Source: Macrostomum lignano
Taxonomy: Eukaryota
Direction: 5' to 3'
Length of the DNA: 22,894 nucleotides
NCBI GenBank assembly: GCA_002269645.1
Contig: NIVC01005187.1
Location: forward strand, 1 to 22,894
Shown here: piece after piece, positions 2,470 through 22,045 of the stretch
How the letters are laid out: the number at the start of each line of letters is the position of its first letter
Position numbering within the stretch: position 1 is the first letter of the stretch
The notes under the pieces: generated by a model
Seen by the model: the letters and a program-made list of their open reading frames with translations, nothing else
Databases searched by the model: none
Told to the model about the DNA's origin: nothing
Position numbers and translations under genes: made by a program

Positions 2470-3603
2470 ATGGACTTCAAACCTATTTTGCAGCGACTGT
2501 TCAACTTGGCACAGAATGAAACACACAGCAGTATTGAAGAAGTTGGCGAAGAGATGACTGGTGAAACGGGGTTCCTCAGCTTCAGGCGCAAGCTCAGGAT
2601 CAAAAAAGGATACTCAACAATCAACATCTTTCTCAAGTTCAGCGACACCAGCCGGCAGGAGCTCGGAGAGTTGAAAGAATTCAGCGATCATTTTTGTCCG
2701 CGAGAGTGCCTGTTCTACGGCACCTTCGCACCCTTGCTGGAGCGGACTGCCTCTCAGCTGGGCTTGGGAAGCGTCGGCCTGCCCACCGTCCACCTGGAGA
2801 TGGTGCTGCCCACAGGAACTCTCATTGTGATGGAGGATCTCGGCGAGGCTGGCTTCGAGCTGGCTCCAGCCACAATGAACGTTGCTGAAGCTCGCTGCGT
2901 GTTGAGCAGTCTGGCTCGAGTCCAGGCGGCGTTCTGGCTGACGAAAGCTCGACTGGGCAGTCCGGCTTCGGGTCTGTTCGGTCCGGAGTCGCCTTTTAGC
3001 GACCCTTTGAAATCCCTTACTGGCACTGCTGTCAACTTTGACGCCTTCCTCGAACAGGGCTTTGAAGAGTTCCGTCACAAGTTTGACAATTATCTAAAAT
3101 GCGAGAAGCGAGCAGCCATTGTCAATGCCTACTTAGAGGATGGATTTCTCGAGAAAACTCGAAAGGTCTTGAAAGTAAATCAGGAGAAGAGCGAAGTCGT
3201 AGGCGTGATTCACTGTGACTTGTGGTACAATAACTGCATGATCAGCAGGGACTCCCGAGGTCAGCCAATTGAGTGTCGTCTCATCGACTGGCAGTTCTTC
3301 GGCATCGGCTGGCTGACCTACGACCTGGGCCCGCTCTGGATATCCAGCATTGACAATGCCATCGTCACGCAAGAGTTCCTGCCTTGCGTGGACTTTTATC
3401 ATCACGCTGTCCAGTCCGCGTACGAGAGCGCGATAGGGGAGAAGTTCCCAGTCTCCCAGGAGCAGATGAGGCAACAGGCTGTGCAGTCGTTGGTCTACGG
3501 CATCGGTTGGGTCATACTGTCTGCGGATACGCTGTGGGCGTTCCAGTCGGTTAGCAACGTGCTTGCCAACATAGCCGACGTGATCGAACACTTCAAGCTC
3601 TGA
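2470..3603 (+). CDS. Ecdysteroid-kinase-like (EcKL/CHK, choline/aminoglycoside kinase fold) protein, 377 aa, intronless
   Basis: Motifs E-x-x-FY (RECLFY), IVMEDL, catalytic loop HCDLWYNNCM and metal-binding LIDWQ. Length is typical for the family. Confidence 0.85.
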   Translation: MDFKPILQRLFNLAQNETHSSIEEVGEEMTGETGFLSFRRKLRIKKGYSTINIFLKFSDTSRQELGELKEFSDHFCPRECLFYGTFAPLLERTASQLGLGSVGLPTVHLEMVLPTGTLIVMEDLGEAGFELAPATMNVAEARCVLSSLARVQAAFWLTKARLGSPASGLFGPESPFSDPLKSLTGTAVNFDAFLEQGFEEFRHKFDNYLKCEKRAAIVNAYLEDGFLEKTRKVLKVNQEKSEVVGVIHCDLWYNNCMISRDSRGQPIECRLIDWQFFGIGWLTYDLGPLWISSIDNAIVTQEFLPCVDFYHHAVQSAYESAIGEKFPVSQEQMRQQAVQSLVYGIGWVILSADTLWAFQSVSNVLANIADVIEHFKL

Positions 3604-4198: not shown

Positions 4199-5350
4199 CT
4201 ACAGACCGAAATGCTCAATCAAATCAGCGACATTGTTGAGTACATTGTCAATCCGACGAAGCACTGGAATCATCTCGGCGAACGTGACCAGCCAGGTGAT
4301 GCCCCAGTTGAGCGACTGGACAGCCTGCTGCCTTATCGTCTCCTTGGAGACCGGGAACTCTTGCTGCAGCCCCGTCTTGTACAGAGATCGAATGGTCTCG
4401 TCGTACAACTCCACACACGGCAGGTATTGCTCCACGGCGATGGCGTTGTCAATGCTGGATATCCAGAACGGCCCCAGGTCGAAGGTCAGCCGACCAATTC
4501 CGAACACCTGCCAGTCGATCAGGCGGCACTCGACAGGCTGTCCGCTGGCGTCTCTGCTGAGCATGCAGTTGTTGTACCACAGGTCCGAGTGCGTTATGCC
4601 CACTACTTCACGCTCCTCTTGGCCCGACTTGATCACCTGCTGAGCCTTCTTAAGATAGTCCCTATCCAGGTAGCCGTTGATGATGGCTATTCGCTTGTCG
4701 CACGTCATGTACTTTGCGAATTCGCGGCGGAACAACTCGAAACCGGCCGGTAGGAGCTCGTCCATGCTCTTCTTGGTTGCGGACAGGGCAAAGAAACCGT
4801 CGGACAGAGGCGACTGCGGTCCGAACAGACCCGAAGCCGGACTGCCCAGTCGAGCTTTCGTCAGCCAGAACGCCGCCTGAACTCGAGCCAGACTGCTAAG
4901 CACGCAGCGAGCTTCAGCAACGTTCATTGTGGCTGGAGCCAGCTCGAAGCCAGCCTCGCCGAGATCCTCCATCACAATGAGAGTTCCTGTAGGCAGCACC
5001 ATCTCCAGGTGGACTGTGGGCAGGCCGATGCTTCCCAAGCCCAGCTGAGAGGCAGTCCGCTCCAGCAAGGGTGCGAAGGTGCCGTAGAACAAGCACTCTC
5101 TCGGACAGAAGCAGTCCATCAATTCCTTCAGCTCGCCCGAGTCCTGTCGGGTTGTGTCGCTGAACTTGAGAAACACATTGATGGTTGAGTCGCCCTTCTT
5201 AACCTTGAGCCGGCGCCGGTAGCTGAGGAACCCAGTTTCTCCCGTCATCTCCTCGCCCGCCGACGCGATGCACCGGTCGGCCTCGTCCTCAGTCAGGCTG
5301 AACAGTCGAGACAAAATCGCCCTAAAGTCCATTTGTCCGTTTGTTTCCAT
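4199..5350 (-). CDS. Ecdysteroid-kinase-like (EcKL/CHK) paralog, ~383 aa, intronless
   Basis: HSDLWYNNCM and LIDWQ motifs; colinear with the 2470..3603 protein. The track start at 5368 is GTG; the first ATG is 5350, and the ATG aligned to the paralog (MDF) is 5332. Confidence 0.85.
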   Translation of the reverse strand: METNGQMDFRAILSRLFSLTEDEADRCIASAGEEMTGETGFLSYRRRLKVKKGDSTINVFLKFSDTTRQDSGELKELMDCFCPRECLFYGTFAPLLERTASQLGLGSIGLPTVHLEMVLPTGTLIVMEDLGEAGFELAPATMNVAEARCVLSSLARVQAAFWLTKARLGSPASGLFGPQSPLSDGFFALSATKKSMDELLPAGFELFRREFAKYMTCDKRIAIINGYLDRDYLKKAQQVIKSGQEEREVVGITHSDLWYNNCMLSRDASGQPVECRLIDWQVFGIGRLTFDLGPFWISSIDNAIAVEQYLPCVELYDETIRSLYKTGLQQEFPVSKETIRQQAVQSLNWGITWLVTFAEMIPVLRRIDNVLNNVADLIEHFGL

Positions 5351-6471
5351 TTTTTCCTTTCCTTTCACGCAGTTTTATTCACGGTAGAACTGCCTATATA
5401 GACAGCAGGGTTTTGCGAAGTGTTTGTACACTGAGTGTTTTTCTCTCCCAGGGTAGAGCGACCGAGTGCAGAGTTTACCCAGAAACTGTCTGTCACACCC
5501 CAGCTAAAAGTTTGGCCGTCATTTTGATAGCAAAGGGTAGAGAATAAATTGGGGTTGAGCGGCAGGAGAGTACATTCATTATTGAGAGTGCACTCGGATA
5601 AGATCTCTAACCCCCATACCAATGAACTGCGAGCTGCATGTACGAGTAAGATGTTTGTTGTTAAACGAGGGTCCTAGTGGGCTGGCCAAACCACTGAGAA
5701 TAGTGGGGTGGGTCCTTAGAGTTTATGTGCTACTAACAGTAGCGCTATATGGACTTTCGTTCAATTCCTACAAAGACGGTCTAGTTTTTTATAATTTAAC
5801 CATTATCTATCTCGTACTAGCTATCTCAACTACATTCAGCTATCTCAACTACATTTAGCTCCCTTAGTGGCTCCTCCCTTGAGGTGCAAATGTACCTCCA
5901 TGGCCCGCTCCCACCATGACCCTTCCATCGGTTTTCGATTTCGCTATGACCTTCAATCTATTAAAATCTTTATTTCGCAAATTTTTAGTCAGCCCAAGTA
6001 CACAGCAGCCTTCAGTCCAGGACTACCAAGTGCTGCTGTGTGGTTAAAAAATTGCGTGAACCGAAAAAGTTAAAAGTGAGTGCATTGCAACACGAACACT
6101 CCAGCCTCTCAGCTACATCAGCTTTAGTGCTGCTGCTATATAGCGTTTTAGTGTTTCGCTTCTTTTCCTCGAAAGAAGGACGAGAAAATGTTGAACGAAG
6201 CGTTGCACTTCAGGGTTCGTCAGCTGTTGCTGCAATTAAGTTTTTAATATTCGGGGATTTCTCGAGCGTTCGAAACATTTTCCCCGGAGATGTCCGCAGG
6301 GGGAAGTTCGAAATGAATAAGCCGAGGAAAAGTTCAAGTGCTGGGGCAGAGGTCAGTTCTAACGAGGGGAAATGCTCACGACTCGACTTTGAATAATCGC
6401 GTCCTTATTGTAACAAAATCTGTTCTATTATTTGAGTTTACGAATGTTAAATATTTCTATATTAATTTCCC

Positions 6472-7950
6472 AAGATTTGCATAGAATTCTCTTGATCTGC
6501 ATAGATTCTCTAGATCTGCAAAGGTTTCTATAGATCTGCATAAAAGTCTCTAGATCTGAATAGATTTCCCTAGATCTGCATGGGTTTCTATAGATCTGCA
6601 TAGGTTTCTCTAGATCTGCATAGATTCTCTAGATCTGCGTAGGTTTCTCTAGATCTGCATAGATTCTCTAGATCTGCATAGATTCTCAAGATCTGCATAG
6701 ATTCTCTAGATCTGCATAGATTTCTCTAGATCTGCATAGATTCTCTAGATCTGTGTAGGTTTTTCTATGCATAGATTCTCTAGATCTGTGTAGGTTTCTA
6801 TGCATAGATTCTCTAGATCTGCATAGATTCTCAAGATCTGCATAGATTTCTCTAGATCTGCATAGATTTCTCTAGATCTGCAAAGGTTTCTATAGATCTG
6901 CAAAGGTTTCTATAGATCTGCATAGAAGTCTCTAGATCTGAATAGATTTCCCTAAATCTGCATGGGTTTCTATAGATCTACATAGGTTTCTCTAGATCTG
7001 CATAGATTTCTCTAGATCTGCATAGATTCTCTAGATCTGTGTAGGTTTCTCTAGATCTGCATAGGTTTCTCTAGATCTGCATAGATTTCTCTAGATCTGC
7101 ATAGATTCTCTAGATCTGCATAGATTTCTTTAGATCTGCAAAGGTTTCTATAGATCTGCATAGAAGTCTCTAGATCTGAATAGATTTCCCTAAATCTGCA
7201 TGGCTTTCTATAGATCTACATAGGTTTCTCTAGATCTGCATAGATTTCTCTAGATCTGCATAGATTCTCTAGATCTGTGTAGGTTTCTCTAGATCTGCAT
7301 AGGTTTCTCTAGATCTGCATAGATTTCTCTAGATCTGCATAGATTCTCTAGATCTGCATAGATTTCTTTAGATCTGCAAAGGTTTCTATAGATCTGCATA
7401 GAAGTCTCTAGATCTGAATAGATTTCCCTAGATCTGCATGGGTTTCTATAGATCTGCATAGGTTTCTCTAGATCTGCATAGATTCTCTAGATCTGCGTAG
7501 GTTTCTCTAGATCTGCATAGATTTCTCTAGATCTGCAAAGGTTTCTATAGATCTGCATAGGTTTCTCTAGATCTGCATAGATTTCCCTAGATCTGCATGG
7601 GTTTCTATAGATCTGCATAGGTTTCTCTAGATCTGCATAGATTCTCTAGATCTGCGTAGGTTTCTCTAGATCTGCATAGATTTCTCTAGATCTGCAAATG
7701 TTTCTATAGATCTGCATAGGTTTCTCTAGATCTGCATAGATTTCTCTAGATCTGCAAAGGTTTCTATAGATCTGCATAGGTTTCTCTAGATCTGCATAGA
7801 TTTCTCTAGATCTGCAAAGGTTTCTATAGATCTGCATAGAAGTCTCTAGATCTGAATAGATTTCCCTAGATCTGCATAGATTTCTATAGATCTGCATAGG
7901 TTTCTCTAGATCTCCACAGATTTCTAGCTGCATTGATCTGTTATGGATTT
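6472..7950. repeat. 20-bp (19-20) minisatellite, ~73 units, TAGATCTGCA plus a variable decamer such as TAGATTTCTC, with a 238-bp higher-order repeat
   Basis: Direct reading. The same ordered run of variant units starts at 6893, 7131 and 7369, i.e. every 238 bp. Confidence 0.95.
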
Positions 7951-8603
7951 CTCAGTCATCGGCTGTCTTGCAGCTAAAACATATTCTTATACCAATGGAA
8001 TCTGTCTAGTGTGTGACATATGGCGTTTTTTATCCCTTAAGTGACTCTAGTCTAGATGTGTATCGAGACTGTGGGGGGTCTGAGTGATCCCCTAGCCATA
8101 TAAAACACTCTCCCAAGAAACCGATAAACTGACTGCCATGCAATGAGATAAAAAGCTCTCTGACTGCACTGAGCTGCCAGCGAACTGGCAACGGACCATG
8201 GCGATACACGCGGATTTCCACACTTTACACAGCAACTTAAAGACAAGGAGTTGCCCTGCTGCGATGCAATATATAGCCCATGGTTTACACGCCGGCTCTG
8301 CGGCTGCGGACTGAGGCTGAAGACAGAACGGCCAACCGCTTTATGATGGAGAAAGTGCTGGAAGCTGCCCACTCCCCCCCCCAAGTTTCTGGCCCGTGTA
8401 GCCGACCGAAAATCAATTGAGGCCGGGATCGATTTAATGCGGGGCGACGAGGCGCGGGACGGATAGGGGAGACCGCGGCTGCTGCTGGCGAGGGCTGGGA
8501 GAACCCGGCCAGAATCCATAATTTCAATCACTGGGCTCTGTTTTTGCTGCGACGCTCAGGCCTTTTAAAGTGGCATTTTTAGCGCTTTGAACCTGCGATC
8601 GGC

Positions 8604-8649
<46 letters not shown>
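8604..8649. repeat. (ATCT)n / GATA microsatellite, ~11.5 units
   Basis: atctatctatct... read directly; abuts the putative viral terminus. Confidence 0.95.
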
Positions 8650-9416: not shown

Positions 9417-10274
9417 TCACATTCTCTCTATAACAATTGTTAGCACAAACTCTTCCCCGTTAAAATCGACACCAACTCCATCCTCTGTTTCAAACTGCAG
9501 AACGATTTCATGTATCTCTCTATTACTCAGAATCACTCTTTTCACGGGGTTTGGCTTTTGCACAAGCATTTTGCCACCAGCAACAGAGTTTGAAATGTTA
9601 AAAAGTATGTTGGTTCGTTTGCCTTTGAATATCCAATCATGGCTCAGATTGCTACGAATTAATATATTCAAACCTTTGACAATGTCAGCGATATTTGGCG
9701 CCAAGTACATACCGGATATTAGCCGGGACACAGCAACAGTGCCAGGCGCCTGCAGCGGGCTTTGGTCTGTGGCGCCACCATAAACTCTCTTTTCAAATCC
9801 CAACTCGCGATACCAAGTGCCATCTTTAAACTCTACCTCTGCGTCCTTATGAACTTGCAAGATAACTCTCATGACAGTTAGATCATAAGTTAATCTAACA
9901 GGGAACAGTTTATTTTCTGGTTTGCTTTCATCCGGTATCTCAAAATGCTTTCGTTTAGTGAAGACGTTCTCCAAGAAGTAATTATAAGTATCCACGCTCT
10001 GTGTGCTGACAGGAAATATCACAACCTCTGTTGTAGTACGCTTCCATTTGTAATAAAACTTGTTATTTTCCGCTGTCACATTGGGAACATTTGACCACCC
10101 AGTGAAATCATTGAGATAGACGTGGTAATTCGCCTCGGGATCCAAACGAAGTGGTTGCTCCAATTTTTGAATGAAGATTCCGTTTGACTCAGTAATGCGA
10201 CCCGCTACAGTGATTGGAATGCTCTCCTTAGAGTGTGAAACAATGTTGTTTAGTCTTTCGGCTATGGCTTCCAT
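9417..10274 (-). CDS. Putative minor capsid protein (penton, single jelly roll), 285 aa
   Basis: Immediately downstream of the major capsid gene, beta-rich, and carries motifs I recognise from Polinton minor capsids: WSNVPNVTAENNKFYY and C-terminal GVDFNGEEFVLTIVI. Confidence 0.7.
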   Translation of the reverse strand: MEAIAERLNNIVSHSKESIPITVAGRITESNGIFIQKLEQPLRLDPEANYHVYLNDFTGWSNVPNVTAENNKFYYKWKRTTTEVVIFPVSTQSVDTYNYFLENVFTKRKHFEIPDESKPENKLFPVRLTYDLTVMRVILQVHKDAEVEFKDGTWYRELGFEKRVYGGATDQSPLQAPGTVAVSRLISGMYLAPNIADIVKGLNILIRSNLSHDWIFKGKRTNILFNISNSVAGGKMLVQKPNPVKRVILSNREIHEIVLQFETEDGVGVDFNGEEFVLTIVIERM

Positions 10275-10296: not shown

Positions 10297-11593
10297 TCAA
10301 ACTTTACTAGACGAGTTATTGATCATATTGACCTTGATCTTCCTCTCAAATGCATAGATAATAAACAGATCAACAGCCGTTGCGGCACCAAATTCTTTCC
10401 GCTCGATATTAGTCACAATGTTAACAGGGCTATTGTCTGTAGGCATTTGTCTAGCAGTCACATCAACACCAAATATTGGATATAGTTTTTTTATACTGCA
10501 AGGTTGTCAAAACAATACCGTTATTCTCTTTGACAGCCAGGTCCGACAGTTCATTGTAAAACTTACTAATCTTGTTCTCCGAGAAATTCCCATTTTGTGG
10601 CAATGCAGGGTATAAATTGTCACTGATCTCATGTTGAATCGATCGAATGTTTCCATGTAGATATCTACCTACATTAGTTGTATTCCTCATAGTGACAATA
10701 ATGTACCTTGGATTGCTACAGGAGCCTTCTTTAATGCAAATATTGTGTCTTGCGTCATTCCGCTCATCTCTGCACATATAAGCTGTATAAGCAACATCAA
10801 TGTCTTTCTCAATCGCCTTCAAGTATTCAGCTTTGAGTGCAGTCTTGGGCTCAATAATTTCTAAGTACAGCTCCACGCTAGTTAGCTTAATCTCCATCGA
10901 TGTATGATTGGCCCCCGACCAAATTCCTCTGTTCCGATCATCTCTAGTCAGTCTAAATGTGTAGCTAAAGTTGCTTGTCAACCGATTGAAACTATTACAG
11001 AAACCACTCATAAACCTCAAAGGTACAAAAATATCTACAGACCTAAACAGCGGATTCTTAGCAGCATCGTTCTCACCAACAAGAGCATAGTTGTATCTCT
11101 CCTTTCTCTTTTTGTAACCAGGGTCATTCTCATCTCCTGTCTGTTCATTGGGGATGAATCCAGCACCGCTCCCCATCTGAATAAAATCCGGGTTCTCAAT
11201 CAAGCACTGGGTATCATAGACCACACCAAAGTTTGCTATTCTTTCCAATTCTGTACTTCCATTGGACACATTAAACTCTTTGAACATATAAGCCCAGAAA
11301 TTACTGGTTAGTGCGACATCCGCATTGTGTAGATCATCATTAGCATGAGCGGCGTCTGCGCCTCCTTTAGTTTTGAATTGATACGTCATATAGAAGCCGC
11401 TCCTTAGACTGTGCACACTAACCAAATACGAACATCCATTGTATGTAAATGTCAGTGTTTGACCAGGACCAAGATTAGTTTCATTCTGATTTTCCTGACT
11501 GGGAACTCTTACCTGAGTCGCTTTGATTGTGCTATCATCACTCAAAATAGGCTTGTTAATTTTGTAGAAAACTGGTGTCAGTGGGTCGTTCAT
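10297..11593 (-). CDS. Putative major capsid protein (double jelly roll), ~431 aa after correcting one frameshift
   Basis: The track ORF (376 aa) breaks at an A7 run (10486-10492). Removing one A continues KKLYPIFGVDVTARQ...DLFIIYAFERKIKVNMINNSSSKV* to 10297. Size, N-terminal ILSDDSTIK, PRYIIV and YPIFxxD fit Polinton MCPs. Confidence 0.75.
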
Positions 11594-12866: not shown

Positions 12867-13247
12867 ATGCCACTTATTTTCGAAAAAGACATTGACAAAT
12901 ACTATGACAAAGAGGAACTTAATCTCATTAAACGCGGATCTGGACTTTTCCCTGCCGGCCACTATCCAAGAAAAGAACGCTCTGGGAATGGCCTTGCCGA
13001 TTTGATCGCTCAGGGGGCCAAGATTTTTAAGGTCATTGGAGAGAACAAAGAGAACATCAAGAACGTTGCCGAAGCGGCTGGCAGTGTAGCCACAGCAGCC
13101 AAAAAGATTAAAGATACGGTTCATAAAACCCGGAAATCAATACCAGATATTCAACCCCTTGCACCGAGTGCAGATAGTGTCGATCCAGCCATCTACGCAA
13201 AGATGAGAGCTGAATATAAGAAAGGAGGCGGTTTTAAATTTGACTAA
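12867..13247 (+). CDS. Small basic protein with GxG sites and an amphipathic helix (adintovirus 'cupiennin'-like; candidate protein-VI-like membrane-lytic protein), 126 aa
   Basis: True start is likely TAAAAATG at 12867; the track start at 12744 overlaps the upstream gene. Contains KRGSG-L, RSGNG-LADLIAQGAKIFKVIG... and terminal KKGGG-FKFD. Confidence 0.6.
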   Translation: MPLIFEKDIDKYYDKEELNLIKRGSGLFPAGHYPRKERSGNGLADLIAQGAKIFKVIGENKENIKNVAEAAGSVATAAKKIKDTVHKTRKSIPDIQPLAPSADSVDPAIYAKMRAEYKKGGGFKFD

Positions 13248-13397: not shown

Positions 13398-13443
13398 TCT
13401 TAAATACACAAGTTTAAAAAGAAAAAGTTTTTTTACATAAAAA

Positions 13444-14243
13444 ATGGACTTCACAAACGACTTTCATCCCCACTGGACACGCAATCAGATAAAATTTGCT
13501 CACAACGAGATAATTCCAGGGCACTTCCGATGCATTGTTGTTGGCTCATCTGGGTCAGGGAAAACCTTCAGAGTTTTTAACATGCTCCTCAGACCTGGAT
13601 TCCTCGATTATGACACACTACATATCTATTCACCCACTCTGTATCAAGATGAGTATAAAATGCTAGTAGCGGGCCTACAGAACAAACTCAACAAGGAAGA
13701 TATTATTCAATGTTTTAGACATCAAAAAGACCTCAACAGCAACCCGGAAGTTGTAGCCACTGAATACGCAAAGCACATCCCAGACAATGAAAAATGGCAA
13801 AACATTAAAGTTTTCACTTATGGAGATCCACAGATAGATCCTAAAACTAAACTCTTACCTCAACCTGATGAACTAGAAAAGGGGAGAAAGCACCTGATTG
13901 TCTTCATGACTGCATGACCGGTCCCCAGAAACAGATAGAAAATTATTTCACCCGGGGTAGACATAATAATTGCAATGTTATTTACATTGCCCAAAACTGG
14001 TTTGAACTGCCAAATAAAACAATTAGAGGTAACTGTAATTTGATTCTCCTTTTCCCAACCATACCACAGGATCGACTGAAACGATTTTATAATGAGGTCA
14101 TTGCCCCAGCTCACATTACATATCCAGCTAAGAACTCTAACAGAACAATATCACAGGAGGAATTTGTTAACATATGCTATGAAAAGTGGAACCAACCCTA
14201 TCAGTTTGTCATGATTAATAAGGAGAAAAGAATTTTACTTTAA
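13444..14243 (+). CDS. A32/FtsK-like genome packaging ATPase, split by a 1-nt deletion in Walker B
   Basis: Walker A VVGSSGSGKT. Restoring one G at 13905/13906 gives Walker B LIVFDDCM. Downstream FTRGRH and IYIAQ...LP..IRxN are A32 family motifs. Confidence 0.92.
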
Positions 14244-14259
14244 TTTTTCATTTAAAAAA

Positions 14260-14994
14260 ATGTCTATTAATTTTGCTGGTGAGTCAACTACAGGCAACAG
14301 CACTCTCACAACTTCCTTCCTTGACAAGCGCTACATTAACACTGATGAAGAGATCCCAGAGATCAAACTGAATAAAAACAGACTGAAAGCCCTAGAGCGC
14401 TCCATGCACCAGTTGCAAATAAACATGGAAGATCTCAGGCTTAAAGTAGCTAGGCAGAAGTTTGAAAGTGATAAGCTTTATGTGCCGTTGTTAAACGCAA
14501 CTAATGAACTTAGGTCAGAAATAACTTCGGCAGTCTCGCAAATCAACGGTTTGAGATCGACAGTTAATCTTCTGGGAAATTCCACTGATAGACGGATGCG
14601 TATTCTTGAAGGAGGAGTTTTCACAAACACAGCTAAAGTAAATAATTTAGAAGAGTTCATGAACCAGTCAACAGCATTGCATGATAGAATTAAAGAAAAC
14701 GTCGCAACCAACACAGGTAAAGTAAATAATTTAGAAGAGTTCATGAACCAGTCAACAGCGATGCATGATCGAATCAAAGAAAGACTTGAAGCATTAAAGA
14801 GAAACGATGTATCACACAGTAGCTATCTAAACGGAATGTATAGCTCTTGGGGTAAAATAATAAGGAGGCTTAATCGTCTGGAGAGAACACTCAATCTTCG
14901 TGACATTGCTATTGATGAAGCAGAATCTACTGCTCGTCCGGTCATTTCTACAGATGAAATTATCAAAAAGAAAACAGATCTTTCAACCGGGTAG
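14260..14994 (+). CDS. Coiled-coil protein with a 28-aa tandem duplication (candidate fibre/spike), 244 aa
   Basis: Intact ORF with TAAAAAAATG start and heptad-like pattern. TNT(A/G)KVNNLEEFMNQSTA(L/M)HDRIKE occurs twice. Function is inferred. Confidence 0.65.
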   Translation: MSINFAGESTTGNSTLTTSFLDKRYINTDEEIPEIKLNKNRLKALERSMHQLQINMEDLRLKVARQKFESDKLYVPLLNATNELRSEITSAVSQINGLRSTVNLLGNSTDRRMRILEGGVFTNTAKVNNLEEFMNQSTALHDRIKENVATNTGKVNNLEEFMNQSTAMHDRIKERLEALKRNDVSHSSYLNGMYSSWGKIIRRLNRLERTLNLRDIAIDEAESTARPVISTDEIIKKKTDLSTG

Positions 14995-15027
14995 TTTTGT
15001 AATTTTTTTATTTTTTCTAGAGAAAAA

Positions 15028-15666
15028 ATGGCCCAACAAAATTCTTTATACGATCAGTCTCAATACGCTGAACCTAAACTACCGACAGCACCAAACCCAA
15101 TGGCACCGAATTCGAACACACAAAGCCTGAATGCACCGAATCTGAATGCACCTCAATATGAGCAACAAAAACTCTACCCCGTCATTTCATGTAACTCTCA
15201 ACAGTTTCGACTAGTGGAGATTCAAAAAATGCGAGATGATCTTGAAAAAAATATTTTCCACAACACAAAGAAAATTAAACGCTATGACAGCCACTGTAAA
15301 TTTTTCGACTACAGCAATATGATTCTAGGATCTGTGTCTGTTCTATCTGGATCTGCTGCGGCTGTCTCAACGTTGCCAGTCATCACAGCCCCAATCGCAA
15401 TCCCACTCGGCTCTGTGGGTGCTGCGTGTGGACTTATTTCAGCAATTACTGGAGCATTAGCGCGAAACAGGCGAAAAAAACTAAAGCAGCTACAGGAGAA
15501 GCAAGTAAAAGAGAAAGGGGTGCACACTTCAATCATAGGGTACATTTCAAGGGCAATCGAGGATAAGTTCATTTCAGAGGATGAGTTCAAAACCATTCAG
15601 GATCTTTATGAACAATCAATTCGAATGAACTTGAACATGGTCGGTACTGATGACATGAGTCAGTGA
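15028..15666 (+). CDS. Membrane-hairpin protein (resembles the adintovirus accessory gene labelled 'GasderminX'), 212 aa
   Basis: LYPVI...QFRLVEIQKMRDDLEK helical segment, a ~48-aa hydrophobic small-residue stretch (MILGSVSV...ITGALA), then basic RNRRKKLK and ISRAIEDKFISEDEF. The family label is from recall. Confidence 0.65.
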   Translation: MAQQNSLYDQSQYAEPKLPTAPNPMAPNSNTQSLNAPNLNAPQYEQQKLYPVISCNSQQFRLVEIQKMRDDLEKNIFHNTKKIKRYDSHCKFFDYSNMILGSVSVLSGSAAAVSTLPVITAPIAIPLGSVGAACGLISAITGALARNRRKKLKQLQEKQVKEKGVHTSIIGYISRAIEDKFISEDEFKTIQDLYEQSIRMNLNMVGTDDMSQ

Positions 15667-15750
15667 GAAATGAACTCGAGAAATTTCTTCAACATTATGT
15701 GGAAAGAAAGTCGGCAAGAAGGACAACGAGAAATACACCACAATGAACCC

Positions 15751-16152
15751 TTATGAAACACAGCCAAGAATAATTTCCTTGTAGGTCTTTCGTGTTTTGG
15801 TCATTGCATACAAAACAGTCATGCACAGCTCACCGCAAATATCACTGCTAAGACCTTGGAGAATAAAGTCTGAGCGATAAATTTTTTTAGTTTTTTTTCC
15901 CTTCATATAATTTCTTAGCTCTTCTGGTACTGCCGTCCCATAGCTATCGAAGTAATAACACTGGTGCTTGCGATCGGGATCAATCACCCAGCAAACCCAA
16001 TGAGATCCTGGCTTATCGGTGGTGTCAAAGTTCATGATGCCGCATTCTTTTCTTAGAGGAAAATCAGGCAGAGTGTCCCTCATAAATATTCCTCTAAAGA
16101 TTGGGATTTCCAGTTCGTTAGCCAAATCTTCAAGAAAGTTATTTGTCGTCAT
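15751..16152 (-). CDS. Adenain-like (C5 family) virion maturation cysteine protease, 133 aa
   Basis: Catalytic His (GSHWVC), Asp (YFDSYG), oxyanion Gln (ILQG) and Cys (SDICG) are in the expected order. Confidence 0.92.
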   Translation of the reverse strand: MTTNNFLEDLANELEIPIFRGIFMRDTLPDFPLRKECGIMNFDTTDKPGSHWVCWVIDPDRKHQCYYFDSYGTAVPEELRNYMKGKKTKKIYRSDFILQGLSSDICGELCMTVLYAMTKTRKTYKEIILGCVS

Positions 16153-16205
16153 TTTTTATGAGGTTTATTAAACTTTCTCTTAAACCTAAACCTAATCTCA
16201 ACCTC

Positions 16206-19200
16206 CTAAACCCAATCTCCTAAACCTAACCTCCAATGCCCGAACAGTAGACTGTTAATATTGTCATCAAAAATGAATCTCTTGTTATCTGCACCTGACA
16301 GTCCAATCTTTTTTTTGCTGAATTGTGTGAATAATATGGTTTTTGGATTGTAGCTTTGAGAACTCATGTGATGTCTTTTTGTTGCAATTCAAGGCGTCTC
16401 TGTATTCAGCTTCATTAATTTCCTTCCTAACCACGCGTTTCGGAATTCCCTTTGATTTTTTAATTGGGTCTGACGACTCACATTTTACAAAATAGGACTT
16501 TGCTCTCAACCCAATGAATTCAGTGATTATGTCACCAGCAATCTCGTCCTTCATTTTCCCAATCACTTTCTTGTTAGTGGCGTCAAACACTTGATCGCCA
16601 TTCTGTGTCCTGAAAGATTCATCATACTCAGACAAGTCAAACAAATCTTTTTGCTGCAGCATGTCCTGATAAATGTCTTCTGTTTGAATGTCCATAATAA
16701 AACTGTCTGTGTCAGTGTACAAGAGTTTCATTTTATCCTTGTACTGCTGCTTCATGCCATAGAAGAACTGGTACATCAGACGTTTTGATTCGTCGAGAAC
16801 AGTGACACCTGTATAGATCGGCTTGCGCAGCGTCACCTTGGTTTTGTAAAATATGATCACACCTAAGTAGCTATTAAAGATATGGAGTTCTTTGAATGTT
16901 GGCTTTGACATATTTGCTTGAATAACAGCAGGCTCTGATGAGGTAACAAGTTTCAGGTTTGTTGTTTTCCTCTCATTTTTCAAGAGTCTTGCCATAGACA
17001 GAGTTGTTGGCCAACTTAAAGAGGTTCTTGTCAAAGTCGTTGGTTGCTTTGGTCCTAAATTTGGGTGTTCTTATCAATGTAGGGTTTCATCCACGCTTCC
17101 TCTGTAAATGTAAGAGCCCTGTGAACTTTGGTGACCCTGCAACCAAGTGAGATAAAATACTGAAGCAGTTTGTAATGGATTTTGTAACGTGTCTTGTTGT
17201 TTAGATTCTGTGTTAGTTTCTCTGTATGTTCTTTTTCTGTTCCTGACAGGTGCCAAGTTCCATTATTATCATTGGGAGTTTCGATTATTTTCGGGCACTT
17301 GATGTTCTCTGGGAAGGGTGGAAAGTCAGAGAAATAGTCGTGAAGCTCTGGTGGAATGTAAACATCAACTTCATAAATGGCAGCCAATGAAAAGTCCCAC
17401 TTTAGTTCTGATGAGGGTAGCCATCGAAAATCTCTAACTGGAAGATCTTGACTCATCGCCCACCCGTAGAGATTATTAGCGTCCAAGTAAGTAATGTAGT
17501 TTGAGGGCTGCTCCTTATTGTAAGATTCAATGTAGGGATTGTTTGCTTTTGCATACCTGTTAACGCAAATTGAGATCCCCCTCGTTTGACGATTCGACAA
17601 AATTGTACATGTCAATGTCTGTAAGAAGTTCAATGTACCAATCTGGATCTTGATCCCATTTCATTTTAAGCAAAGATTCCCAGCTAGTGGCAGGGAGAGA
17701 CACATAATGTGCTGGATCGAGGCCATATGCTGTGTACCAGGTGTATCTGAAGGTTTCAAACACATCGGCCAGCAGAAACACATCTGTGAAGAGGTAAAGC
17801 AGGTGAAACTGGAAGAAGTTTTGACAATTAAAGTAATTATAGACATGCTTCGCGTGCTCATAGTCTTTGTCAGAGATGCCAGAGTCTGTTAGCTTTGAAA
17901 AGAATTTCTCCTGTGGTGGTAAACCTTCTTCAAATACGTGATACCCAGTAATATTCTCATAGGGGTAGAAGCCTTTCTTTCTTAAAAGTTTAAATGATTC
18001 ATCAGTTCTTGCAAATATCTTTGTATATGTACATTGTTCATCTTTTAGATTCTTGCTTAGTTCGTCTAGACTGGCAGCTAGAAATTGATATGAATCCTTC
18101 AGTCTTATCTTACCTTTACTGTTACCCAAATTATCCTGTTTAATATCAACACACTTAAACTTCTTGTTTTCTGCGATGCAATCAAGGTGTATGTCTGGAA
18201 TCATGCCGATTTTTTCAACTATTAAATGCATGTCATAGTTCTTTGCGTTGTGACAAAATATCGTTAGATCATGAATGTTGGATTTTAGCTTTAGATTACA
18301 GGTGTTATGCGCTGCACCTCTAAATTTCCCAGTAAAGTGGCAGTGGTCCCTAACGGTGGGGTTTTTAAAATCAGTGCAAGTTAACTGTTTCCTGCAGATG
18401 TGGCAATGAGTTGCTGATAGGAAATTGCTTTCATCCTCCTCAGTCATCATTATTGGAACAGGTTGAAGAGTGCTAATTACTCTTTGCAACTCTAACATTC
18501 TGGCAATAAACTGCTCCACACACTGGTCTCCAAAGAAATAATTATACTCAACAAGTCCTTTTGTATTAATAAAGGCATATGCTACTGAATTGGGGACATG
18601 TTTTTGAGTTTGAGTTTGTTTTTGAGTATGAGTTTGTTTTTGAGTTTCTGGCATGATTGAGCATTCGAAATCAGCATATACAACAAACGGGAGCTTCTCC
18701 ATCTTGTGATAGTTCTTAAAACGGAGATACTTCTCTTCAGCTGAAGGAAGAGAGCAATTGTCGGGTGATCCTCGCATGATAATTCATGCTCTGTTAGTTT
18801 TTCAAAGCGTTCAGGTCCACTGTAATGCTTAAGGCACAAGCGGCAGATGGCAACAGCCTCGTGATGATTATTCAACTGTTGTGAATGAGTCTTGAAAGAT
18901 CTTTAATCCAAACATAGTGAGCCTCCTCTAGTAAATTACCAATCACTAGAAGATCCACTTCAGTCCGCCTTTTCCCCTCAGGATCTAAAACGTCTTTGCT
19001 ACATCTGACCGGTTGAACTTTCTCAGTTTTTTCACTCCACTCAAAGACTGTATTCTAATTTTGTTATTAAACACTTCTTCTAGCTTTGGGATCTGAGAGA
19101 TCGCCAAGCCTCCTTTGTCAAACCTGATTCCCTTCTTTTCACATTCGATGAGATAGTGCTTGAAATAATTTTGATAATTTGAGGTTCTTTCGGGGTGGTG

Positions 19201-20047
19201 AGAGACACTATCATGATGAAGTGCAGAAAGAACTGCCCATAGAGCACAGCAGTTGTCTTTATTTTAACATTTATGCAAGCTTTTTTGCCGGCTAGCTTAT
19301 GCGGGAGATCTATATAAGAGGAGTCTTTAAGTGGGTCATATTTCATGACCATAACAGTCGCTCTTTGAATCCCTCCCACGACCCATCCGGAACCTCTGGA
19401 TGTAAACGCTTCAATTTTCTTAGTGACATCTTGAAGGAAAGGATCCAGTGTGTCTGTAGGGGTGAATGGCTTTGCCTTTGTTGTCATGTAATACTCGAGA
19501 TGTTCAGTGGGTTTTGCAGGCATATAAAACGCAATCTTGAATGATATCTGTAGTTTAAAGGTCTTGCGTGTTTTGAGTGTGTGATCAACAACTGATTGGA
19601 TGCTGTCTTTATAGTCGTAGATGTTTGCGGTGGTGCCGTTTATTGGGATTGTGTACTCTATGTAATGTTCTGTAAACTTCCTCTGTGCAAAATTAATCTC
19701 TTCAATGGCAAGCTCAGACTCTTTTAAATGTATTAATTGCTCTAATTTCTCTTGTTCCTGCTTATTTTGTGGGTACTTTGCTTTTTCACCAGTGAGAGTT
19801 TCGTATTTGTTAACTAAGTTGCGACTCCTCTCTTGGTGTTCCTTTGCAGGATTTTGTATAGGCGCATACTGGTTTGATTCTAATTGTTTTATGATTTCCA
19901 ACTGTTTTTCATAGCTTCCCAGGTGACCAGGGTCGGTGTTAAACTTTTGTTTACATTCTTTCTTAGTAAATTACTTTTGTCTTGAAATGAGACGCCTTTT
20001 GAAAAATATTTGTTGACTAAATCTCTTGCTGGATTGGCTTTTGGCAT
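16206..20047 (-). CDS. polB: Protein-primed family B DNA polymerase (~1280 aa reconstructed) with vOTU, Zn finger and EndoVII/HNH domains; at least 9 frameshifts
   Basis: Reconstructed order: GSGW, SYIDLP, vOTU NKDNCCALW...HYVWIKDLSRL, CRLC..H..C, ExoI YADFE, CHIC..DHCHFTGKFRGAAHNTCN, ExoII HNAKNYD, KGFYPY, ExoIII YLFTDVFLLADVFE, motif A LDANNLYG, motif B KLANNSVYGK, motif C YTDTDS, GKMKDE, LRAKSY, KGI, DNKR..GH. Stop at 16206. Confidence 0.95.
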
Positions 20048-20170: not shown

Positions 20171-20635
20171 TCACATGCGCATTATTGTAAACCCAGCATT
20201 GTGCAGTGTCATGATGGCTTTGACAATGTCAGACTTGCTTACAGAATTTTCATGCACACAAGCATCATGATCATCACAATCATCAAAATCAGGGCAGCCC
20301 TCTCCTGCCTTAATTGTTATACCTTTGTCTCTTGCAATCTTTTGTAATTCTAGCTGGTGGGCTCTATCATTCCCAGCTTTAACAGCAGTTGCTACACCTC
20401 CAGCTACACCACCTGCGGCACTTACGGCACCTGCAATGATTGGGATAAGAGCTGCTAATGGTAGGATTCCTCCTGACTTTTCATCTGTGATGCTGTGTCT
20501 TTGTTCATTACATTGAACTATTTGCTGCACGGGATCGATTTTTACTTTGGCACCTTTAATTGATATAAGACCTGGTTTCTTTGATTCAATGATTTTATTG
20601 AGTTTATTGATGGTTCTGGTTTCAATCTTTGTCAT
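20171..20635 (-). CDS. Small protein carrying an adenovirus pX (pre-mu)-like GG-ILPL hydrophobic segment, 154 aa
   Basis: KSGGILPLAALIPIIAGAVSAAGG versus human adenovirus pX MRGGILPLLIPLIAAAIGA (recalled sequence). A8-ATG start context. Confidence 0.65.
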   Translation of the reverse strand: MTKIETRTINKLNKIIESKKPGLISIKGAKVKIDPVQQIVQCNEQRHSITDEKSGGILPLAALIPIIAGAVSAAGGVAGGVATAVKAGNDRAHQLELQKIARDKGITIKAGEGCPDFDDCDDHDACVHENSVSKSDIVKAIMTLHNAGFTIMRM

Positions 20636-20649
20636 TTTTTTTTAATATT

Positions 20650-21664
20650 TTAATTAATTTCTGTGTCAGCTGGTATCACTAGGAGTTCAGCTCTAGTGAA
20701 TGACCGCGTGGGGGATTTAGGGTTAAAGGCCTGAGATAAAAAGTAATACTCTCCAGAGTCGGAGGTAAAATGTCTGTCTATTTTATGTACATCAAGGCTG
20801 AAGTATGGATCTGTAGCTCTTCTTTTAGTGTCCTTCTCTAGCTCTCCAGGTAGATATAAAAAGCGTAGAAACTCAGAGTTTGTCAGTATGTATGGTGATT
20901 CAACTCCGGTAGCTTAGGGTAGTTCGAGGTGTGTTTTGTGTTGTGCTTGTTGTCTGTTCTATGAGATGTCTTAAGTTTGACAATGTCTTGTTTAATTGCA
21001 TGGGACGGTTTCAATCCAGTCATGCGTGTGACTTCATTGTTCAGTTGCTCTATAACAATGGGGAGTCTTTCTGTCCACTTGGTATAGTACTGCCCCGCAC
21101 TCAGTTTGAGTTCTTGCGCTGTCTGCTTAGTGAATAGTCTCTTGGCTAGAGTTAAATTAAATCTCTCAACGTACGCTTGGTCCCTGTGCAGGTCTGTTCT
21201 TCCGTAGCGAATCTTCGTATTTTTCTTTTCCATAAGGGATTTGACTGCACCCATGAATTCCTTACCCGGGTCGGTCATAAAGGTTTGGGGTATCTGAGCG
21301 GAGAGTTTTTATAAATATCTTGCAGTGCGGCTGCAACTGCTTCTGATTGTTTAGTCTTTAGTGGGCGAGCTTCCTTATATCTGGAGGCAATGTCTGTAAT
21401 GGTAAGAGCATACTTGTAGCCTGAGTCATTGGGGAGAAACAGAAGATCTGCTTGGTGCGCCTCATTAGGTTTATAAATACTGAAATGGGGCCTTTCAAAT
21501 TTTACTGGTGGGAAATAGACTTGAAAGACAGCCTGCTTAGAGAGCCATTTTTCTACTGTAGCTTTTGGCTCCTTACTCAGCTCCATGAGTTTACTAACGG
21601 CATTTTTGCCTACAAAGAATCCTTTGTCGCTGTAGTAGAGTTTTTTAAGTTTCTGATCTGTCAT
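20650..21664 (-). CDS. int: Retroviral-type (RVE, DDE) integrase of the Polinton, two frameshifts
   Basis: HQADL...YALTITDIASRY (D1), MTDPGKEF (D2; frame restored by adding one A at 21284-21286) and YVERFNLTL (E). A third frame gives the C-terminal RFLYLPGELE...RRATDPYFS...RSFTRAELLVIP ending at TAA 20650. Confidence 0.93.
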
Positions 21665-21692: not shown

Positions 21693-22045
21693 ATGCAGCG
21701 CTCTGGTGGTAAAATAGATTCACATGGACTGATAGAAAAGCTTCCTCATCCAAACAAAGGCTGGACAGTTCCCGGCTATAAATATTGCGGGCCTTTGAAT
21801 CCTCTTGAAATACAGCTGGATGGAAACAACAACCCAAATCCTGGACATGAGCCTGTGAACGAGCTGACTCTGTCTGCATGTGGCACGACGTTAAGTATAG
21901 GGATTATCCAGAGGAGAAGAATCGCTGGGACAAAGAAATGCTTAGGAGACTAGACAGTATAGGGACTTCAAGCGGATTTCGTGAGTCGATTGCTAGGAAA
22001 TTAGTCAAGGCGGTTATTTTTGGTAAGACAAAATTGGGGTTGGGG
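21693..22045 (+). CDS. Parvovirus-VP1u-like phospholipase A2 domain protein (adintovirus PLA2X-like), one frameshift, 3' end uncertain
   Basis: Ca-binding loop PGYKYCGP. Adding one G at 21866 gives PVNELDSVCMWHDVKY (HD dyad), then WDKEM and KTKLGLG. The frame stays open to 22162, but the sequence after 22045 looks non-viral. Confidence 0.85.

Follow-up and report, generated by a model that had tools for sequence, protein, structure and literature searches.

A SLATT-like hairpin protein of a Macrostomum lignano Polinton bears family-wide late-domain motifs predicted to recruit ESCRT

The window, by which we mean the whole stretch of DNA that was analyzed, comprises the 22,894 nucleotides of Macrostomum lignano contig NIVC01005187.1 (assembly GCA_002269645.1). 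Pfam matches between 10463 and 21664 to DNA polymerase B, rve integrase, double-jelly-roll major capsid protein, A32 ATPase, and adenain-type protease, all five of which are present, identify the element on this contig, by its sequence, as a Polinton/Maverick (adintovirus). Its minus strand encodes a likely minor capsid protein (9417..10274; assigned by position only, without a Pfam match, and with homologues in 6 related loci) and the Polinton double-jelly-roll major capsid protein (10463..11593; PF21738, E 5.9e-7); the plus strand carries an A32-type packaging ATPase in two ORFs (13444..14243; PF04665, E 7e-4), a 244-residue coiled-coil-like protein taken from the ORF list and without a Pfam match (14260..14994), and, next to it, the 212-residue protein that is our subject (15028..15666). 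Downstream on the minus strand are an adenovirus-type maturation protease (15751..16152; PF00770, E 2e-4), the protein-primed DNA polymerase B in several pieces (16285..19523; PF03175, E 1e-8), a protein with an adenovirus pX-like hydrophobic segment (20171..20635; PF05829, E 4.6e-7), and a retrovirus-like integrase in two ORFs (20883..21664; PF00665, E 1.8e-5), and a parvovirus-type phospholipase A2-like fragment lies on the plus strand at 21693..21953 (PF08398, E 6.7e-4). We regard this copy as a relic, because the ATPase, polymerase, and integrase are each split over two or more ORFs. A Pfam search recognized no fusion glycoprotein in the element, and no long inverted repeat pair bounds it within the window, which is the whole contig and may end inside the element.

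Other features of the contig deserve brief mention. A short plus-strand ORF at 12870-13247 combines GxG sites with a basic amphipathic stretch and presumably resembles a membrane-active core protein of the adenovirus VI or "Cupiennin" class. An ATCT microsatellite at 8604-8649, followed by AGTAG and 82-92-base repeats, is a candidate left end of the Polinton. Farther left are a satellite of 19-20-base units (6408-7930), two facing intronless ecdysteroid-kinase-like (EcKL) host genes that are 89% alike over 464 bases (2470-3603, plus strand, and 4199-5350, minus strand), and, at 850-1783, a 190-residue ORF without a Pfam match that is bracketed by a 26-base inverted repeat (850-875 and 1758-1783) and that we take to resemble a retroelement reverse transcriptase tail. 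Four sequencing runs that we guessed to be RNA covered 13420-17500 evenly, with genes and spacers alike, and no holder of the gene is on record as RNA.

The ORF at 15028..15666 (plus strand) encodes a late-domain-tailed, SLATT-like membrane-hairpin protein. Near its start lies NSLY (15040..15051), a third tyrosine motif, nearly invariant in the 11-sequence alignment of the closest homologues (kept in 10 of the 11) and found in both of the tail types present in M. lignano. Residues 19-22 form PTAP (15082..15093), a predicted ligand of TSG101 (ESCRT-I) that recurs in homologue tails and genome copies; APN/APQ repeats follow at 15103..15156 (AP[NQ] is present four times, once overlapping PTAP); and residues 49-53 form LYPVI (15172..15186), a predicted ALIX V-domain ligand of the type (L/I)YPx(L/I/V) that is shared with homologue tails and metagenome loci. 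P[S/T]AP occurs in no other of the 31 ORFs to the right of base 8500, and when the 56 N-terminal residues were shuffled 100,000 times, each motif alone turned up in 1.1-1.5% of the shuffles and both together in 0.018%. The tail gives way to a long soluble helix (residues 55-96; 15190..15315) with a conserved F-R-L start, in which R61 is at least 90% conserved in the family and which includes the basic cluster KKIKR (residues 81-85; 15268..15282). An uncharged Gly/Ala-rich hairpin with a proline turn (residues 97-144; 15316..15459), the predicted membrane anchor, is followed by the basic cluster RNRRKKLK (residues 146-153; 15463..15486), with K151 at least 90% conserved, and by a C-terminal helix-loop-helix (15487..15642) in which the alignment and the model place the conserved S174, D179, and E186 and which is a candidate capsid-binding or oligomer surface. 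Residues 174-187 (15547-15588) are the most conserved part of the family, with the pattern S-[KR]-A-x-x-D-x-x-I-S-x-x-E-F; presumably they recall the second half of an EF-hand or a TerB-like loop, and DUF533 weakly matches 5 of 135 family members. An earlier note on this DNA had drawn attention to PTAP, LYPVI, and RNRRKKLK and to a two-helix hydrophobic hairpin; the three motifs are exactly where it placed them, and the hairpin is real, being uncharged from residue 97 to residue 144 and modeled as helix-turn-helix.

The gene is repeated in the M. lignano genome, where at least 151 matches to the 212-residue protein were found in a search that yielded 614 candidates, 150 of which were scored. 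In all 30 of the best copies, both motifs are kept and the protease and upstream coiled-coil genes adjoin. The distance from Q58 to the stop is 177-189 residues in 27 of these 30 and 155 residues in the window copy, which is therefore short at its C-terminal end. Among 20 more-distant copies that were fetched, 11 (loci L045-L051 and L060-L063) bear another type of tail, which is shorter, retains LYPVI, and carries, directly before the common PQYEQQK stretch, one to three overlapping P[S/T]AP motifs where the window copy has its APN/APQ repeats; the other 9 have a frame shift in the tail or lack an anchor. Judged from this alignment of tails, the APN/APQ repeats are likely to be worn-down P[S/T]AP repeats, and the presence of two tail types on one core suggests tail swapping and motif amplification within a single genome. 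Ratios of pN/pS among copies were 0.20 (29 copies, 406 pairs), 0.58 (11 copies), and 0.46 between types, values that are weak as evidence because the 29-copy set was picked by protein likeness.

Beyond this genome, a profile built from 11 sequences and searched against 1.84 billion representatives at 50% identity (cutoff, E of ≤0.001) defined a family of at least 791 proteins. Most of the best 150, which we examined, are 16-30% identical to the window protein; an informative name was attached to only 1 of 20 homologues checked, an uncharacterized Hydractinia protein, and the atlas clusters resembling that homologue are mostly eukaryotic (Mollusca being commonest) or viral. A metagenome scan with a DNA pattern drawn from the core only returned 40 loci. 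Counterparts of the capsid, ATPase, protease, integrase, or polymerase genes of the window accompany the gene in 12 of them, among which are 10 of the 11 loci exceeding 5 kb; Pfam confirmed the Polinton genes of several of them. Since the gene sits among virion and integration genes in 10 of 11 loci longer than 5 kb, we consider it to be a widespread Polinton gene. Relatives were absent from viral_contigs (four queries), from the first metagenome scan, and from phages. Some related elements also contain ORFs of 390-440 residues with a strong hydrophobic segment near the C-terminal end and no Pfam match (L071:5471-6793, L071:6773-8005, L072:4677-5963, and L088:7034-8191), which are candidates for envelope proteins.

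The structural model obtained from 135 sequences (pLDDT, 83.6; pTM, 0.65), which replaced a 9-sequence model with a pLDDT of 59.9, comprises a loose tail, a helix at residues 55-114 (pLDDT 83-97), a short proline turn, and helices at residues 124-179 and 184-205, so that the model and the alignment agree on an architecture of helix, two-helix hydrophobic hairpin, and helix. The uncharged stretch at 97-144 has a length of 48 residues in 116 of the 135 homologues, and 68 of the 135 have no charged residue in the hairpin at all. All 135 have a net positive charge ahead of the hairpin and 133 have one behind it, and because both flanks are basic both termini are predicted to be cytosolic; the positive-inside argument that the earlier note had made for one protein thus extends to the family. 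The plan is that of SLATT (SMODS- and SLOG-associating 2TM) proteins, and SLATT_1 and SLATT_4 profiles matched 44 (best E, 2.7e-7) and 10 of 135 members, respectively, at an E of ≤0.05; the window protein itself matched no SLATT model, the best Pfam match to SLATT_5 scored 27 bits against a cutoff of 29.5, and the LeoBC defense model matched more members (81 of 135) than SLATT_1. Given the weak SLATT_1 matches and the reach of LeoBC, we call the protein SLATT-like rather than a SLATT member, and the likeness may reflect a common hairpin plan. Among the best 50 viral fold matches, the top two (E 9e-6) are proteins without a name from invertebrate iridoviruses, others come from mimiviruses and pithoviruses, and 5 bear a SLATT label (best E, 3.2e-4); A0A5B8RH66, S6DF61, and A0A481Z009 belong to these iridovirus and giant-virus matches. 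Solved structures offered no Foldseek match at an E of 0.001, only generic helical hairpins; the leading matches, BAR domains and coiled coils with a Z score of at most 11.9, did not reach the threshold applied to helical proteins, and the best sequence match to a solved structure was AopB (E 0.002). Two other identities, GasderminX and PW, were considered and are not supported. The pX match falls on the ORF at 20171-20635 instead, and the 25 families listed for the 135 members do not include PF05829; PW sits between capsid genes in vertebrate Mavericks (PMC8097293, available text), unlike 15028-15666.

The earlier note had proposed that conservation of P[ST]AP and YPx[LI] in homologue N-terminal tails would bear on whether the motifs are functional, and the outcome was positive. 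From 147 new proteins, with the 11 profile-building sequences excluded, 5 with a late-starting core were removed, leaving 142, of which 22 had tails shorter than 12 residues; motifs were scored in the remaining 120 tails and in 500 shuffles. P[S/T]AP occurs in 55 of 120 tails, against a shuffled mean of 0.69 and a highest value of 4, and YPx[L/I/V] preceded by a hydrophobic residue occurs in 102, against a mean of 0.71 and a highest value, again, of 4, enrichments of about 80-fold and about 140-fold. Both kinds are present in 49 tails and at least one kind is present in 113, so that P[S/T]AP is absent from 65 and both motifs are absent from 7. The enrichment also holds in a control for search bias restricted to matches scored on the core alone (P[S/T]AP in 42 and YPx[L/I/V] in 77 of 93), and the motifs all but disappear in C-terminal tails (2 and 0 of 134) and in neighboring Polinton proteins, the other ORFs of related metagenome loci having either motif within the first 60 residues in 0 of 110 cases and anywhere in 1 of 110. 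In the metagenome loci themselves, 22 of 24 distinct tails have YPx[L/I/V] and 10 have P[S/T]AP (shuffles, 0.12 and 0.10), these 24 being kin of a motif-bearing clade and perhaps overlapping the 120-tail set. The choice of residues is also narrow: of 58 PxAP matches, 40 have S as their middle letter, 15 have T, and 3 have some other residue, and among 114 tails with YP, L or I stands in front of it in 93 and YPx is followed by L, I, or V in 108. PPxY, considered as a third late domain, is not enriched (6 of 120 tails versus 3.0 in shuffles) and is absent from the window protein.

PTAP comes first in 25 tails and YPxL comes first in 24, and spacing varies; in a quickly built tree of 152 cores (145 columns, with many forks open), the well-supported branches force at least 10 and at least 11 changes of the two motif orders. 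Repeated order switches and variable spacing are as expected of independently selected docking motifs, and motifs that persist, shift, and double as the surrounding tail changes behave like docking signals under selection. Some tail-less or motif-less homologues form small clusters on the tree (P0030, P0044, and P0100; P0068 and P0130; P0096 and P0097), and these may represent a true loss of ESCRT use.

Both candidate partners are encoded by the host. M. lignano has ALIX-type V domains, and the relevant ALIX exon keeps a phenylalanine aligned to human ALIX F676, which we take to be part of the YPxL pocket; the V-domain exon is followed by a PSAP of ALIX's own, a hint that M. lignano still reads PSAP. 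TSG101 is also present (UEV, E 7e-39; locus L032:1474-1875), and 4 of 6 pocket residues are kept (Y68, I70, P139, and S143), with H and V replacing human Y63 and F142, which belong to a trio of aromatic residues that grips the final proline of PTAP (10.1101/2024.11.15.623737, in its available part). Such changes in the pocket could stem from selection by late-domain parasites or simply from drift. In the single Hrs locus examined, there was no in-frame PSAP exon.

We suggest that the hairpin would sit in the membrane with both ends in the cytosol and that its tail, through P(S/T)AP and (L/I)YPxL, would bind TSG101 and ALIX and so bring ESCRT-III and VPS4, which would cut a neck pointing away from the cytosol; scission by ESCRT-III and VPS4 is established for these motifs in the sections available of PMC8402826 and PMC4880917. 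The conserved soluble helices would grip capsids, and scission would free vesicle-wrapped particles, as bluetongue virus NS3 does. The parts of this scheme differ in strength. That the motifs are genuine late-domain motifs, family wide, on a SLATT-like Polinton membrane protein is what the homologue alignments indicate, and recruitment of TSG101 and ALIX by the tail is predicted with considerable confidence. That the soluble helices hold capsids and lead to membrane-wrapped exit is an evenly balanced proposition, the capsid link being drawn by analogy alone, and we place at the same level the scheme as a whole, namely, that a Polinton hairpin protein recruiting TSG101 and ALIX enables capsids to leave the cell, or to enter endosomes, by budding, which is nonetheless the best explanation overall. 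Against it we count the altered pocket of host TSG101, the motif-less and very short tails, the failure to recognize a fusion glycoprotein in this element, the pore roles that published work assigns to SLATT proteins of Polinton-like viruses, and the shortened copy in a broken element. Adenovirus capsids are filled in the nucleus; if Polinton capsids are too, a further step across the nuclear envelope would be needed. More tentatively, and with the balance tipping slightly against it, many animal Polintons could carry a SLATT-derived TSG101/ALIX egress adaptor that makes them quasi-enveloped DNA viruses, with the same adaptor fold turning up again in iridoviruses and giant viruses.

Among other explanations, the one that survives best, unlikely as we judge it to be, is that the protein forms a pore (viroporin) of the SLATT type, serving lysis or escape from endosomes, and that the late motifs do no more than send this pore through ESCRT, to endosomal vesicles or away from the plasma membrane, to time or limit damage. 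The SLATT-like fold and profile matches speak for it, as do weak matches to the hairpins of pore formers (the RTX N-terminus hairpin model matches 24 of 135 members) and the pore roles proposed for SLATT proteins in the accessible text of PMC12220804 and 10.64898/2026.10.13.758929. The hairpins without any charged residue, in half of the members, offer no obvious ion path, and self-sorting would hardly seem to call for a pair of separate ESCRT handles that some tails even duplicate. A pore would also be compatible with membrane-wrapped exit, because NS3 and hepatitis E virus (HEV) ORF3 are channels and egress factors alike.

It is slightly more doubtful still that ESCRT is used for something else, whether loading of exosomes with DNA of the element, with RNA, or with this very protein, remodeling of the nuclear envelope, or a sponge for TSG101 and ALIX directed against coinfecting budding viruses. 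HEV ORF3 is secreted alone in vesicles (PMC11725905), the budding of an iridovirus depends on TSG101, ALIX, and Nedd4 (PMC4880917), and a defensive role against such viruses has been suggested for Mavericks (PMC8097293), all according to the portions of these papers available; the tandem P[S/T]AP of the second tail type would suit a sponge. Set against this are the company that the gene keeps, since it travels with the virion module, and the fact that iridoviruses and other large DNA viruses have look-alike folds of their own, both of which fit the making or release of particles better than action against them.

ESCRT would be uninvolved if the tyrosine motif were a plain YxxPhi clathrin-adaptor signal and the proline motif had another reader, which we consider improbable. 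YPxL does fit YxxPhi, and the altered TSG101 pocket of the host would sit comfortably with such a role. Equine infectious anemia virus (EIAV) budding uses AP-2 in addition to ALIX (cited via PMC8402826, in its available part). A YxxPhi signal, however, needs neither a proline after the tyrosine nor a preceding L or I, both of which are strongly kept, and among the 12 orderings of P, P, A, and S/T only P[S/T]AP (55 tails) and its overlap [S/T]APP (31 tails) are common. Finally, although the motifs are short and each arises now and then when the window tail is shuffled, their origin as chance products of a proline-rich tail is refuted by the homologue-tail shuffles, none of which reached beyond 4 tails for either motif, by the metagenome loci, and by the failure of PPxY, tested alike, to show enrichment, and we give it next to no credence.

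The earlier note was not aware of such a system having been described for Polintons, and we found no Polinton-ESCRT link in the literature searched, which lay mostly outside subscription journals. ESCRT is not mentioned in PMC8502044, PMC8097293, 10.1101/2024.03.25.586562, or PMC11161782, nor is it mentioned in three works that deal with SLATT genes, PMC12220804, 10.64898/2026.10.13.758929, and 10.64898/2026.06.19.733378; the words Polinton and ESCRT occurred together only in dUTPase and tree-of-life works, with one or two mentions each, SLATT and ESCRT never did, and a term search of PMC11296320 and 10.1101/2025.02.07.637071 added nothing. As far as the available text of these sources extends, the membrane-active genes of adintoviruses are named PLA2X, GasderminX, and Cupiennin (PMC8502044), a gene called SLATT is drawn on the maps of Hydra and Stylophora adintoviruses (PMC8502044 supplement), and SLATT genes are marked on maps in 10.64898/2026.06.19.733378; those of Polinton-like viruses have been proposed as pores for endosome escape (PMC12220804), and SLATT has been proposed to serve abortive infection or lytic exit (10.64898/2026.10.13.758929). 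A fusogen in nematode Mavericks led to the suggestion of enveloped virions, with budding and ESCRT unmentioned in the part available (10.1101/2022.07.12.499685), and no virion of a vertebrate Maverick has yet been observed, according to the accessible sections of PMC8097293. The nematode fusogen implies an envelope, for which no source is known. The two ESCRT motifs kept across the family single out host partners, which opens the way to simple binding and vesicle assays, and they point to vesicle fractions as the place to look for Polinton particles; they would also link a bacterial-type defense fold to viral budding. If our reading is correct, vesicle-cloaked particles would help to explain why Polinton virions are rarely seen and how these elements pass between cells and hosts.

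The closest functional parallel is NS3/NS3A of bluetongue virus (Orbivirus), as described in the available part of PMC6949946. Like the Polinton protein, this molecule of about 220 residues has two membrane segments with both ends cytosolic, N-terminal late domains that include PSAP, a coiled coil, and membrane-proximal polybasic motifs; NS3 bridges a nonenveloped capsid to ESCRT, and its PSAP is needed for budding. It differs in pairing PSAP with PPxY, in its glycosylated outer loop, and in belonging to a cytoplasmic double-stranded RNA virus, whereas the Polinton protein pairs P(S/T)AP with (L/I)YPxL, shows no enrichment of PPxY, and has a turn of a few residues. PF01616 matches 1 of 135 members (E 0.002) and NS3 is not among the best 50 viral fold matches, and we treat it as an analogue. 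ORF3 of HEV is likewise a small membrane protein; it is an ion channel, binds TSG101, and yields quasi-enveloped particles via multivesicular bodies (PMC11725905, available text), but it has 113 to 114 residues, is palmitoylated, and comes from an RNA virus, and we saw no link in sequence or fold. SLATT proteins share the arrangement of helix, two-helix hairpin, and helix, and those of adintoviruses, Polinton-like viruses, and large DNA viruses are described as putative pores, without a link to ESCRT in the passages available. HIV-1 Gag p6 has the same pair of motifs, PTAP and YPXnL, read by the TSG101 UEV and ALIX V domains (PMC8402826 and PMC4880917, accessible parts), but retroviral motifs sit on the capsid-forming polyprotein, whereas in the Polinton, a DNA element of the double-jelly-roll kind, they are carried by a membrane protein of their own. 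Tiger frog virus, an iridovirus, is itself a double-jelly-roll DNA virus that buds via TSG101, ALIX, and Nedd4, with three late motifs distributed over three proteins rather than gathered in one tail (PMC4880917, as far as available). Set beside these systems, the Polinton protein would be an ESCRT adaptor of a known kind in a new form, for which binding to ESCRT is likely and membrane-wrapped exit is plausible.
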